DNA of 64,000 nucleotides from an uncultured Spirochaetota bacterium (GCA_963768055.1 CAVYGN010000002.1:1536001-1600000), one strand, 5' to 3'. Counted from the first letter of the stretch, positions 26,899 through 39,163 are shown. The notes: generated by a model not told the origin, from the sequence alone. Translations and numbers: made by a program.

Positions 26899-26936
26899 GG
26901 CCCCATGGGAGCATTCGTGTTATGTACTGAAAAGTA
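26899..26936 (+). repeat. Outer left 38-bp IR
   Basis: Exact reverse complement of 39126-39163. Confidence 0.92.
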
Positions 26937-27184
26937 ACAAGCCGTTTGGCTGTCAATTAATCAGAAATATCAATGCTTTCAACATACATAAAGTAATTAA
27001 AGTATTATAAAAGTAAAGAAGCTCCCTTATTTTTTTAATTGGGGTTCTAACCATAAACCCCCGAAATATTTGATACCTATTATATTGTCGACAGCCAGGG
27101 AGATTCCCAACCTTTTCCTGAAAATTACCATTTAAGATTTTAGATAGAAATCAAAAAACGATCAAACGTAAGAAATAGAGGTCG

Positions 27185-27480
27185 GTTTCAATCCACGCGC
27201 CCACACGGGGCGCGACAACTACGCCGTCATCACCAAGGAAATAAAACCTTGTTTCAATCCACGCGCCCACACGGGGCGCGACAAAGAGCTGTCTCAATAT
27301 TTCTCCGATCTCGGAAGTTTCAATCCACGCGCCCACACGGGGCGCGACAAATTCGGAGAGGCCGTGGGCGTTTTTGAAATAGGTTTCAATCCACGCGCCC
27401 ACACGGGGCGCGACCAAATTAATCCTATTTTTTCGGAAGGGAATAAAAGTTTCAATCCACGCGCCCACACGGGGCGCGAC
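27185..27480 (-). CRISPR. Type I-C CRISPR array 1: 5 repeats, 4 spacers of 34 bp
   Basis: 32-bp repeat GTCGCGCCCCGTGTGGGCGCGTGGATTGAAAC (minus strand) at 27185, 27251, 27317, 27383 and 27449. Confidence 0.97.
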
Positions 27481-27658
27481 GATAGACAAGTTTATTGTTG
27501 ATAAGATAAAAGATTAAATGACGAATTTCGCGAATAAGCCATATTCATGGTTAATGTTATCCGGGATTATTGCGTTCGTATGTATTTGATGATATAACCT
27601 AAAGTTCTATAACCGCGAATATCCAGAGATATTCTGTTTGTCGAAGGTTCGCAAAGAT
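27481..27658 (-). promoter_or_regulatory. CRISPR leader 1
   Basis: AT-rich segment between the cas2 stop and the first repeat. Shares CGCGAA, CCGCGA and TTCGC motifs at similar spacing with leader 2. Confidence 0.75.
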
Positions 27659-27946
27659 TTACACTAATATTAAACCTTCCGGGTCAAAAGTCTTTTTTGT
27701 TCCAATATGTTCTACTCTATTTTTCCAGTTTGCTCCAAGATAATAAAATCGAAGGCTATCGTATTTTTCATTGATTTCTTTTTCAAGTTTATGCCGTAAT
27801 TCTTTCCATTGTGCAGGATCTACAAGGCATTCAAAAACAGAGTACTGAACGCGCTGGCCGTAATCTTCACAAATTTTTGCAACACGTCGGAGCCTTTTTT
27901 TACCTCTTTCATCCTCAGCTACATCATAACTCACAAGTACCAGCAT
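27659..27946 (-). CDS. cas2: CRISPR-associated endonuclease Cas2
   Basis: LVSYDV, RLRRVAK, GQRVQYSVFEC, DSLRFY. Confidence 0.96.
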   Translation of the reverse strand: MLVLVSYDVAEDERGKKRLRRVAKICEDYGQRVQYSVFECLVDPAQWKELRHKLEKEINEKYDSLRFYYLGANWKNRVEHIGTKKTFDPEGLILV

Positions 27947-27949
27947 GCA

Positions 27950-35311: not shown

Positions 35312-35315
35312 GGGC

Positions 35316-35981
35316 CTAATTTATTCCCAGTATTATATTGGATTTTCTGATACTATCCTGTATGTCTTTATTCGAGTATTTCAAATATACCAATGTATTC
35401 ATAATGTTTGCATGGCCCAGGATTGTTTTTACCTGGACTAGATTAACGCCGCTATTTAACAGCTGTATTGCCCTGGAATGTCTTAAGGTATGAAGATGGG
35501 CCAGGTCCTGATACTCCGTTCCCAGGATTGAAACAATATATTTTTTTAACGCCTTGTTGGCAGCCTGAATGGAAATCGGCTTGTTTCCTGAATTTTTAGC
35601 AAAAAGATAATCTGTTTTGATAAGTATTTTTAATTTTTCATACATCAGGATCCGGTTGATCAGAGAATTCGAAAGAGTAAGGACGCGCACTATGTTTTTA
35701 TTTCTTCTTTTCAACGTGGCCAGTTTTACTGTTTTGTTATAGAAATCGATATCATGAATTTTTACTTGAAGGACCTCGCTGATCCTGGCGCCGGTTTCAA
35801 AGGAAAATGAAAAAAGCATCTTATGGAATTCGTTAGTGATTCCATCGAGTAATTTAATAATCTCTGATTCATTAAGGTACTTTATCTCTTCTTCATAGTA
35901 ATTTTTCCAGGATGATTTATACTCCACAAGTTCAGTTTTGTTATGCTTAAGCTTTTTATTTTCATAAATTACTGCATGCAT
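35316..35981 (-). CDS. Short tyrosine recombinase (catalytic domain only), putative cointegrate resolvase
   Basis: ETGARISE, TLKRR, HTLRHS, LGHA, LVY give the R-K-H-R-H-Y set. GAGGTGG RBS before ATG 35981. Divergent from tnpA. Confidence 0.88.
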   Translation of the reverse strand: MHAVIYENKKLKHNKTELVEYKSSWKNYYEEEIKYLNESEIIKLLDGITNEFHKMLFSFSFETGARISEVLQVKIHDIDFYNKTVKLATLKRRNKNIVRVLTLSNSLINRILMYEKLKILIKTDYLFAKNSGNKPISIQAANKALKKYIVSILGTEYQDLAHLHTLRHSRAIQLLNSGVNLVQVKTILGHANIMNTLVYLKYSNKDIQDSIRKSNIILGIN

Positions 35982-36148
35982 TAGCCCACCTCGCTGGTTA
36001 AACTTAAATTGTAAATGAAACTTTCCGATAATAATTTTATCGTTTTCAAGCAAAATATGGAAGAAAATCGGGTTAAAAAAATTAGAAAAGTTTAACTTAT
36101 AATATGTTTCTTAAACTTTTTCATGATAAATTAAATTCGGGGGTTTAC

Positions 36149-39118
36149 ATGAAAAAAAACTGGGAATTGGATGAATTAATCGAACATTTTACCTTTCTTC
36201 CAAACGAGCTTTCACTTATAGGCAACAAAACAGGAGAGACCAGACTCGGTTTTGCAGTCATCTTTAAGTATTTTCAACAAGAGGCCATATTTCCGAATTC
36301 AAAATCAGATATTCCAAAGGTTGTTATTGATTATATATCCAAACAAGTAAAAGTCGCTGGAGACCTATATGATAAATACGATATCAATAGCAGAACCTTC
36401 TTTAATCATAAAGCACAAATAAGGAAATTTTTCGGGTTTCGAGAACCAACTACAAGGGATACGAATGAAATGGCCACATGGCTTGAAAAGCAAGTCCTTT
36501 ATAACAATTTTGTTTTAGACCGAATAAAGGTTGAAGCATACAAACACTTCCGGGAATTACATATCGAGCCGCCTACTGACGAAAGAGTTGACCGTTTAAC
36601 TAGGTCGGCTATAGCTTCTTTTGAAAACCAATTTTTCAGAGATATTTACCAAAAGATACCCACTGAGTGCTTGTCAAAGATGGATTTATTGATTAATAAC
36701 CTTACATCATACGATGAAAACGAACAAGATTACAGTATTAATAAAGAAGTTATTTCTTTTAGCGACCTGCGTAACGATCCTGGTCGAGTCGGTTTGGAAA
36801 GCGTTTTTAAAGAATTGGGTAAGCTCCAGACGATCCGGCAATTGGGATTACCTGTAGATCTGTTCAACAATATCCCCCAAAAGGTGCTGAATAGATATAA
36901 ATTCCGGGCTGTTTCAGAAAAGCTTCCGGAACTTCGCCGGCATCCCGAACAACTCAGATATACGATCCTGGCTGCCTTTTTTTGGGTCAGGGGCAGAGAG
37001 ATAACCGATAATTTAATTGAATTACTAATCCATATTATTCATCATATCGGGGTCAGGGCCGAAAATAAAGTTGAAAAAGAACTTATTGATGATTTCAGAC
37101 GAGTCAATGGCAAAACAAATATTCTTTTCCAGATGGCTGATGCAGCCCTTGATAATCCAGATGGTATAGTCAGGCAAGTACTGTTTCCAGTCGTCGGTGA
37201 AAACACATTAAAAGCATTGGTAAAAGAGTATAAAAGCACCGGCTCAGCATATCAACTGAAAGTATATACGATAATGAGAGCATCTTATAGCCGTCATTAT
37301 CGCCGGATGGTTCCTGAATTACTCGATAATCTTACCTTCTGTTCTAATAATGATGTTTACAAGCCTATAATAAGGGCTTTGGATTTAATTAGGAAATATA
37401 ATGAATATGGGACAAGGTTCTTTGCAGATTTTGAAGACATTCCTATCGATAATGTAATTAAGACCTCAATGAAGGAGTTGATAATCGAGAAAGATAATAA
37501 ACGTCAGGAACGCATTAACCGAATCAATTATGAAATAGTAGTTTTACAGGCGCTTCGGGATAAACTACGTTGTAAGGAGATATGGGTTGTTGGGGCTGGA
37601 AGGTATAGGAATCCCGATGAAGATTTACCTATCGATTTTGAAGAACACCGGGAAGAACACTACAGGGCCTTAAAACAGCCTTTAAATCCATCTGAATTCA
37701 TTGATAAAATCCGCCAAAATATGATTGCTGGATTATCAAAACTCGATGCAGGTATGCCTAAAAATACTAAAGTCCAGATTACCAAAAGAGGTAATGGATG
37801 GATAAAAGTCTCTCCTATTGAGGCCCAGCCGGAACCTTTAAACCTCGCAATGCTCAAAACCGAAATAACAAGACTATGGCCTATGACAAATCTTCTCGAT
37901 GTGCTTAAGGAAGCCGATCTAAGGCTCAATTTTACAGATCATTTTAAAACAATGGCCGCTCATGAAAGATTAGACAGAACTTTAATCCAAAAACGTTTAA
38001 TATTGACTTTGTATGGAATGGGAACGAATACGGGTCTAAAACGAATAGCGGCTGGAAATCGTGGTGAAACCCATCAGGACCTGTTTTATGTCCGGAGAAA
38101 ATTCATCAATAAGGATAACTTGAGAGATTCCATATCATCAGTGGTTAACTCCATCCTTAAAGTCCGAGTTAAAGACGTTTGGGGAGATGGGACTACAACC
38201 TGTGCCTCAGATTCAAAAAAGGTAGGAGCATGGGACCAAAACCTGATGACTGAATGGCATATACGTTATAGAGGACGAGGTGTAATGATCTATTGGCATG
38301 TTGAGAAAAAATCTGCTTGTATTTATTCTCAATTAAAAGCATGTTCTTCATCTGAAGTGGCTGCCATGATAGAAGGGCTTTTAAAGCATTGCACTGATAT
38401 AAATATCGAAAAGAATTTTGTTGATACTCATGGCCAAAGCGAGGTTGCTTTTGCTTTTTGCCATCTTCTCGGATTTAACCTTATGCCCAGGTTTAAAAAC
38501 ATTGGCAGTCAAAAGCTTTACAGGCCAGATTCTGGTATGGCAGACTCCTACCAAAATTTACAGCCGGTATTAACACGGCCAATTAACTGGGAGCTTATAC
38601 GTCAGCAGTATGACCAAATGGTAAAATATGCTACAGCTCTGCGTTTGGGAACAGCCGAGACTGAAGCGATCCTGAAACGGTTTACCAGGAATAACTTAAA
38701 ACATCCCACTTATCTCGCTTTTGCCGAACTTGGAAAGGCCATAAAAACTATATTTATCTGCGAGTATTTGAATTCCGAAGAACTTCGACGCGAAATTCAT
38801 GAAGGACTTAATGTTATTGAAAATTGGAACTCCGCCAATTCTTTTATTTTCTATGGTAAGGGAGGCGAGATCTCAACCAACAGGATAGAGGATCAGGAAC
38901 TAGCAATTTTATGCCTTCATCTGCTGCAAAATTGCCTAGTTTATATCAACACGCTTATGATTCAACAAATATTATCTCAAAATAAATGGCATGATTTAAT
39001 GACAGCAGAAGATTTCAGGGCGCTTACGCCGCTTATTTATAATCACATTAATCCTTATGGGCATTTTAACCTGGATATGAATGAAAGAATTCCTATAGAG
39101 ACTGATATTGCTGCTTAA
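36149..39118 (+). CDS. tnpA: Tn3-family transposase, apparently intact
   Basis: About 990 aa; [41 protein letters not shown]. Stop lies 7 bp inside the right IR. Confidence 0.95.
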
Positions 39119-39125
39119 TACAATC

Positions 39126-39163
39126 TACTTTTCAGTACATAACACGAATGCTCCCATGGGGCC
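39126..39163 (-). repeat. Right 38-bp IR
   Basis: Exact reverse complement of 26899-26936. Confidence 0.92.

Follow-up and report, generated by a model that had tools for sequence, protein, structure and literature searches.

A stretch of 64,000 nt from an uncultured Spirochaetota bacterium (GCA_963768055.1, CAVYGN010000002.1:1536001-1600000), referred to in its full length as the window, contains at positions 26899-39163 a segment of 12,265 bp, locus A. In this segment, a type I-C system of short palindromic repeats, clustered and regularly interspaced (CRISPR), and of Cas (CRISPR-associated) proteins is enclosed, together with a tyrosine recombinase gene and a Tn3-family transposase gene (tnpA), by two identical inverted repeats. 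In our study, the segment has been interpreted as probably being a Tn3-family transposon which brought the type I-C system in as its cargo, and we infer that the 12.3-kb unit moved as a whole.

Genes and repeats of the 12.3-kb segment

The outer left (26899-26936, plus strand) and right (39126-39163, minus strand) terminal inverted repeats are each 38 nt long and form a perfect pair. The identity was found to extend to 43 nt, the arms 26894-26936 and 39126-39168 being 100% complementary (the 38-nt core plus TTGTA / TACAA). None of 100 shuffles contained the 38-mer, against exactly two occurrences in the window. A third, inner repeat lies at 35274-35311 (plus strand) in the orientation of the outer left one and agrees with the outer and right repeats at 30 of 38 positions, i.e. 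the identity of the pair of ends is 100% for outer/right and 79% for inner/right. It delimits a 3.9-kb core with the recombinase gene and tnpA. An earlier reading of this DNA (the original prediction) had described the perfect pair, the third repeat and a tnpA stop codon 7 bp from the right repeat, and all of these were confirmed, the stop codon ending at 39118.

A non-coding stretch of 248 nt (26937-27184), which carries the motif GCTGTCAATTAATC at 26949-26962, leads from the outer left end to the trailer end of the CRISPR array (27185-27480, minus strand), which has five identical 32-nt repeats and four spacers of 34 nt. The repeat can form a 7-bp hairpin (-14 kcal/mol) and its 3' end is ATTGAAAC, an ending of the kind that is typical of type I-C. 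I-C arrays of plasmids, Nitratidesulfovibrio plasmids among them, were matched by the repeats as well. A leader of 178 nt (27481-27658, minus strand) separates the array from the cas operon, the genes of which are all encoded on the minus strand: cas2 (27659-27946; PF09827, 101 bits; TIGR01573, 78.5 bits), a type I-C cas1 (27950-28981; TIGR03640 cas1_DVULG, 497.7 bits, cutoff 385), cas4 (28981-29628; TIGR00372, 147.2 bits, cutoff 65), cas7 (Csd2; 29634-30497; TIGR02589, 303.7 bits, cutoff 182), cas8c (Csd1; 30494-32344; TIGR01863, 306.8 bits, cutoff 218.65), cas5c (32341-33066; TIGR01876, 138.9 bits, cutoff 85) and cas3 with its HD nuclease and helicase parts (33081-35267; TIGR01587, 161 bits; TIGR01596, 95 bits). 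All seven cas genes are intact and exceed the curated cutoffs that NCBIfam sets for I-C or general Cas families, and the operon is uninterrupted by other open reading frames (ORFs). Their order, cas3-cas5c-cas8c-cas7-cas4-cas1-cas2 without cas6 and with the array downstream of cas2, is that of type I-C. Hence the ORFs and profile matches bear out the predicted gene order from array and leader through cas2, cas1, cas4, cas7, cas8c, cas5 and cas3 to the recombinase and tnpA, and the type I-C system that is placed between the outer left repeat and the recombinase gene is complete.

The right part of the segment holds the transposition genes. The intact Tn3-family tnpA (36104-39118, plus strand) matches NF033527 with 903 bits (cutoff 500; profile positions 23-990 of 1004) and PF01526 with 473 bits (positions 1-389 of 389). 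Its likely start is the ATG at 36149, giving a protein of 989 amino acids in which all columns that are invariant among 15 aligned sequences are conserved, D688, D759 and E891 among them. The second gene encodes a short tyrosine recombinase, a putative resolvase (35316-36053, minus strand; PF00589, 88 bits), for which an ATG at ~35984 preceded by a GAGGTG site is the likely start, giving 222 amino acids. Between the two divergent genes lies an AT-rich intergenic region of ~165 nt (35985-36148) with a 10-nt perfect inverted repeat, AAAAGTTTAA / TTAAACTTTT, and this region may be regarded as a candidate resolution site on account of its short inverted repeats.

The recombinase gene reads toward cas3. 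The likely start codon of cas3 is the ATG at 35255, with AGGTG 9 nt upstream and the N-terminus MIFYAH, and it is found only 18 nt from the inner repeat, which leaves no space for a promoter of its own, so that read-through from the recombinase gene would be expected. No terminator-like site was detected between the recombinase stop codon and cas3, and the gap consists of the 38-nt inner repeat plus these 18 nt. Expression of the cas genes by read-through is therefore likely, as far as the layout of the sequence tells. Promoter-like sites were also considered as evidence and were given no weight, as they are not enriched (41 against 39.7 in shuffles).

Ends, relatives and flanks of the element

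TnpA relatives were collected by scanning one genome per species, by which 563 were found; the best 80 loci (L001-L080) were kept, and both ends were detectable in 18 of them. None of the kept loci was identical to the focal one, and the source genome itself did not turn up in the collection scanned. The ends of the relatives are 38 nt long, start with GGGG (in some GGCC or GGCG) and end with AAAGTA. The focal ends align without gaps with those of the 18 relatives, the outer left repeat being in register with ends such as those of L004 and L048, and they have positions 7-16 in common with L004, whose end could be set from its duplication ATATT. In all 18 relatives the left end agrees with the right one at 92-100% identity, and by this measure the outer/right pair of locus A is normal and the inner/right pair atypical. 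The original prediction had held that the 12.3-kb unit should be preferred in transposition. The part of this claim that concerns the ends stands, the outer pair being the typical one, but co-mobilisation of the whole unit is deduced, with neither a duplication nor a second copy nor another flank to be seen.

The relatives with both ends range from 1.9 to 12.9 kb in length, and perfect 5-bp duplications were found in seven of the 18 (L001, L004, L055, L057, L059, L069 and L080). Eight relatives are annotated; cargo is placed between the left end and the recombinase in five of them (L001, L005, L006, L048 and L069) and between the recombinase and tnpA in two (L002 and L004), and in L018 the recombinase was not found. 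L001 is a unit of 12.9 kb with a cargo gene for a subtilase of 2,319 amino acids and a TAGTA duplication. With cargo of such placement and size in the relatives, L001 included, the proposed size and layout of the focal unit are ordinary for the clade. The focal recombinase is at most ~27% identical, in local matches, to any recombinase in the 80 loci. Targets of the four spacers of locus A were sought in the window, in these loci, in phages and in plasmids and none was found, the plasmid matches being repeat-to-repeat only; similarly, when the end repeat with the array junction was queried against plasmids, only the array repeats matched.

Two further observations concern the relatives. L048 and L049 are the same element of ~5 kb, the ends of which start with GGCC like the focal ones, found once in a genome bin of Desulfosporosinus and once in one that carries the label Gammaproteobacteria; the flanks of the two copies differ and a clean duplication is present in neither. 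The cyanobacterial element L069 (4300-6974 of its locus) has a TCATT duplication, and cas1, cas2 and a small array lie ~900 nt outside its left end.

On its right side, locus A is bordered by a different Tn3-family tnpA (39164-41338, minus strand), which is cut at about residue 725 and covers only positions 2-135 of 389 of the PF01526 profile. The cut coincides exactly with the 38-nt boundary of the focal right end, which makes this a genuine insertion junction. The remaining C-terminal part of the cut tnpA was not found anywhere in the window. The 5-nt flanks are TTGTA at the outer left, TATAA at the inner left and TACAA at the right repeat. The outer left flank (26894-26898) is thus the exact reverse complement of the right one (39164-39168), for which the probability by chance is ~0.0014, a value judged post hoc. 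No single transposition product that accounts for these inverted flanks could be derived. A TAYAA-like target preference in the focal family is one possibility, and L080 has TATAA. A two-copy inversion model was also tried and rejected, because it requires a deletion that stops precisely where the repeat ends on its inner side. For comparison, the Tn3 element at 19412-24242, which served as a control from the same window, is flanked by TAGTA at either end.

A second I-C locus and the proposed origin of the segment

The window contains a second I-C locus, locus B (55449-58483, minus strand), which is made up of the motif GCTTTCAATTAATC, an array of 13 repeats (55516-56340), a leader, cas2, cas1 and cas4, and which is truncated upstream of cas4 by other Tn3 ends. 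Spacers 4 and 5 of its array are identical. At the trailer end of the array, the locus is abutted by an end repeat of the focal family, GGGGTAACAACATCATAGCTGTAACCAGGGGCAAAGTA (55411-55448, plus strand), which has the orientation of the repeat at 26899-26936. This repeat scores 46.3 bits against a profile built from the relatives only (best of five shuffles, 6.8) and agrees with the right end of L005 at 32 of 38 positions. No partner for it was found in the window. The interior of the element faces the array in both locus A and locus B. Identities between the proteins of the two loci are 76% for Cas2, 65% for Cas1 and 55% for Cas4, and their leaders can be aligned in conserved blocks. In a quick and weakly supported tree, the two Cas1 proteins are sisters beside a Cas1 from a Treponema plasmid (Shimodaira-Hasegawa-like approximate likelihood ratio support 81). 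Compared with representatives at 50% identity, the best Cas1 match is 52%, a sampling too sparse for a precise placement of A and B.

The two junctions also have a short motif in common, as GCTTTCAATTAATC directly after the B repeat and GCTGTCAATTAATC 12 nt past the A repeat match at 13 of 14 positions. Among 400 shuffles one reached this score, among 400 pairs of random real segments three did, and allowing one mismatch the motif has three hits in 1.28 Mb (window plus loci), two of which are the A and B junctions. The motif after the B repeat is possibly a decayed terminal CRISPR repeat; it begins 67 nt before the first full repeat, but matches only the TTTCAAT end. Neither the family end repeat nor the motif was found at any of three plasmid I-C loci (Bacillus mycoides, Paenibacillus and Treponema), and no Tn3 gene is annotated within 14 kb of these. 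With the junction at B paralleling that at A, the link between a family end repeat and the trailer of an I-C array is present twice in this genome, in diverged forms. Locus B is best read as what is left of a second element built like locus A. The A repeat resembles the sub-lineage of L018 and L048 and the B repeat that of L002 and L005, and the two loci may stem either from one old lineage or from two captures at one position.

From these features, the following history can be proposed for locus A as a Tn3-family transposon with I-C cargo. The element would be a replicative transposon of the clade with 38-nt ends of the form GG...AAAGTA. In line with what is established for movement in the Tn3 family, a cointegrate would be formed by TnpA through binding of the two identical outer ends, and would be resolved by the short tyrosine recombinase in the region that separates the recombinase gene from tnpA. 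Transcription of the cas genes would come about by read-through from the recombinase gene. A related element may have inserted in an AT-rich stretch upstream of cas3, within a transposon that already carried the cas genes. The tnpA of the nested element would subsequently have been lost by recombination of the two resolution sites with each other, while the left end and the recombinase of that element stayed behind. The inner 30/38 repeat as the scar of such a nested element is the explanation favoured here, as it would account for the presence of three repeats, the divergence of the inner one and the 18-nt gap to the cas3 start. At position 17, the inner repeat has the base of L004 and L006, unlike the outer pair. 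Finally, the present copy would have inserted in the tnpA of another Tn3-family element and one flank would have been rearranged since, which is our proposal for why no target duplication is seen.

The nucleotide composition fits a joint arrival of the locus A cas genes and the transposition genes. The G+C content at third codon positions (GC3) is 0.25-0.47 in the cas genes of locus A, 0.35 in tnpA, 0.40 in the recombinase gene and 0.34-0.45 in locus B, against 0.43-0.58 in 13 housekeeping genes.

A number of observations weigh against this interpretation, which is put forward with moderate confidence. No 5-bp direct repeat, the expected target duplication, was found for either the 12.3-kb or the 3.9-kb unit, and the inner left flank TATAA agrees with the right flank TACAA at four of five positions (chance ~0.02), which slightly favours the smaller unit. 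The left flank of the element is a gene for a PMT_2/ArnT-like membrane protein and not the missing half of the cut tnpA, so that the present copy is not a simple insertion with continuous flanks. Low GC continues past the left end (GC3 of the left-flanking ORF, 0.32), so that the left boundary is not marked by composition. Stray ends are common in this window, with its four or more Tn3-family elements. The end repeats of A and B have only 18 of 38 positions in common, and the two loci may accordingly be independent captures and not one lineage. The outcome of the comparative searches also counts against it: I-C genes lie inside the ends of none of the best 80 of the 563 TnpA relatives, a second copy of the unit was found neither among these nor in plasmids or protein searches, and plasmids hold no near DNA match. 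The same boundaries, which the original prediction had suggested looking for in other genomic settings, were not met with in plasmids, where the only match was a 632-nt stretch of tnpA at 72.5% identity. The closest TnpA in a large protein collection is 84% identical and lies on a metagenomic contig of 7,043 nt, the next ones being ~74% identical and mainly from Clostridia; the closest Cas8c other than its own is 63% identical and is encoded on a contig of 10,523 nt.

It is unlikely, in our estimate, that only the 3.9-kb core (35274-39163) transposes and that it landed upstream of a resident cas3, which would turn the outer left repeat into a stray end of another copy and the cas genes into trapped bystanders. 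Relatives of ~4.1 kb (L053, L057 and L062) show the same minimal anatomy as the core, and the near agreement of its flanks as well as the abundance of Tn3 debris in the window are in line with such an event. The cas genes could moreover be native to the lineage, given that Cas1 of A and B groups with a Cas1 from a spirochaete plasmid and the host is Brevinematales-like. However, an end that is identical over 43 nt and correctly oriented at 248 nt from the array could be stray only if a deletion had stopped precisely at the inner edge of the repeat, and no similarity to the end of a tnpA was found beyond the outer left repeat. The 79% identity of the inner/right pair falls outside the range of the 18 relatives, the same end-to-array junction recurs at locus B, and the GC3 of the locus A cas genes is unlike that of the housekeeping genes. 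The proposal of the original prediction that the 3.9-kb core captured the cas module is likewise not favoured, since it needs a new perfect end beyond the cas locus and leaves locus B unaccounted for.

A hot spot, by which members of the family would insert beside the trailer ends of I-C arrays and A and B would be two independent insertions without inherited cargo, appears quite improbable. The low agreement of the two end repeats and their resemblance to different sub-lineages would be expected in that case, the common 14-nt motif could be native trailer sequence, and cyanobacterial L069 does lie near a small array with cas1 and cas2. On the other hand, the element interior is directed toward the array at both loci, the array near L069 lies beyond the ends of the element without adjoining it, the three plasmid I-C loci are without the motif, and locus A would still be enclosed by a matched pair of ends. 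An assembly error at the repeated 43-mer, which the sharp end of the identity at 43 nt and the missing target duplication might suggest, can practically be dismissed as the source of the left junction, because a wrong join leaves one repeat copy and not two inverted copies 12 kb apart, the database entry for the identical Cas8c places it on a 1,888,111-nt contig, and locus B independently has the same kind of junction.

The interpretation of locus A as a transposon with I-C cargo can be carried further with a good deal more caution. It may be tentatively suggested that there is a Tn3-family lineage with a long-standing I-C cargo, with the array at its left end and the operon wired to the promoter of the recombinase, of which this one spirochaete genome holds two diverged members (Cas1 65% identical). 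Should such a lineage exist, complete systems of adaptive immunity would pass between replicons and phyla by replicative transposition, a route that had not been recognised before. That the position of the array at the end of the transposon has a function in transposition is hardly to be believed.

Genomic surroundings and relation to known systems

The window is chromosomal, with frr, uppS, cdsA, truA and rsmH within 1-17 kb, and the best named relatives of its RsmH are from Brevinematales (74% identity). The part from ~17 kb to the right edge is made up of mobile DNA in a mosaic arrangement. Where the housekeeping genes give way to the mobile part, a 117-nt tandem repeat (17138-17508; 3.2 copies, 83% matches) was found, followed by a weak match to plasmid Rep3_C at 18963-19331. 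The Tn3-family element at 19412-24242 is complete (4.8 kb, perfect 38-nt ends, TAGTA on both sides) and carries a Gp49-like (HigB-type) toxin gene as cargo beside its tnpA and a serine resolvase gene. To the right of locus A, the remnant of the other Tn3 element (39164-42935) consists of the cut tnpA, a weak PIN-like ORF and a tyrosine recombinase which has 37% identity with that of locus A, with an end-repeat-like sequence at 42897-42935. IS1595 and metal-related genes follow before locus B, and a decayed end repeat of the focal family (49589-49626, minus strand; 23 bits against the profile), for which no partner was identified, is located 3 nt after a DsrE-like gene. Nested Tn3 ends occupy 58822-59126, immediately upstream of the locus B cas4: an end-repeat-like sequence at 58822-58860 and, at 58951-58988, a third exact copy of the repeat of the 19412 element, after which a remnant of 33 amino acids of the C-terminus of that element's TnpA follows (85% identical). 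The last part of the window (62130-64000) holds a HigB-like toxin gene, a serine resolvase gene and a fourth Tn3-family tnpA, of which only the start falls inside the window. PADLOC gave no hits for 10 unexplained ORFs, and Rfam and tRNA scans of the window found nothing.

Among described elements, locus A is presumably closest in kind to the Tn3-family transposons of the Tn4430 / Tn5401 type, which combine TnpA with the tyrosine recombinase TnpI. It resembles these in a TnpA of ~990 amino acids with DDE_Tnp_Tn3, in 38-nt ends and in a tyrosine recombinase as the putative resolution enzyme, and the best plasmid matches, with 56-66% identity, come from elements of Bacillus, Paenibacillus and Priestia that carry the annotation 'Tn3 family transposase / tyrosine-type recombinase'. 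In contrast to that type, the focal recombinase is short (~222 amino acids) and reads away from tnpA, and the putative cargo is a CRISPR-Cas locus of 8.3 kb. The analogy with Tn1721, which had been drawn in the original prediction, turned out to be loose. Three end repeats, a small unit within a larger one and a right end common to both units are found in locus A as well as in Tn1721 / Tn1722. In Tn1721, the extra end repeat is accompanied by a duplicated piece of tnpA, whereas in locus A the duplication stops at 43 nt, no tnpA fragment lies beside the outer left repeat, and the inner repeat is the diverged one.

CRISPR-Cas systems spread horizontally, and their described carriers are mostly plasmids, conjugative islands and phages, and only rarely Tn7-like elements. 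Like the Tn7-like CRISPR-associated transposons and the Tn7-like elements with CRISPR-Cas cargo, locus A joins a CRISPR-Cas system to a transposon within a single unit. Unlike the CRISPR-associated transposons, in which a Tn7-like core goes with a nuclease-deficient effector and no adaptation module, it is without TnsB, TnsC and TniQ and has the HD and helicase parts of Cas3 as well as Cas1, Cas2 and Cas4; its CRISPR-Cas system would be cargo and not a guide system for transposition. According to the relevant passages of Benler et al. (2021, PMC8649781), complete CRISPR-Cas systems are carried only rarely by Tn7-like transposons. I-C systems sit on the pKLC102-type islands of Pseudomonas aeruginosa in the account of Leon et al. 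(2021, PMC7913775), and in the passages of that paper on Tn3-family transposases, these are tied to anti-I-C genes and not to I-C systems. The parts of PMC8453159 that concern Tn3 elements and cas8c deal with the two separately. Relatives of the I-C Cas1 were found in 46 plasmid records. Locus A is thus similar to the pKLC102 islands and to plasmids in having a complete I-C system on a mobile element, and differs in that those are conjugative islands of ~100 kb or plasmids, while the focal carrier would be a replicative transposon of 12 kb. No report of a Tn3-family element with CRISPR-Cas cargo was found in the full texts searched, which include only a minority of the subscription journals, so that this absence is not a proof.

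If the interpretation of locus A as a transposon with I-C cargo is true, Tn3-family elements would join the carriers of adaptive immunity, and a compact replicative transposon could put a working immune system on any plasmid passing through the cell, with the expression of that system tied to the transposon's own promoter. The broken locus B suggests that the link between this kind of transposon and I-C systems is not a single accident. The 12-kb unit also offers a small and testable model, in which the two candidate left ends can be compared directly.

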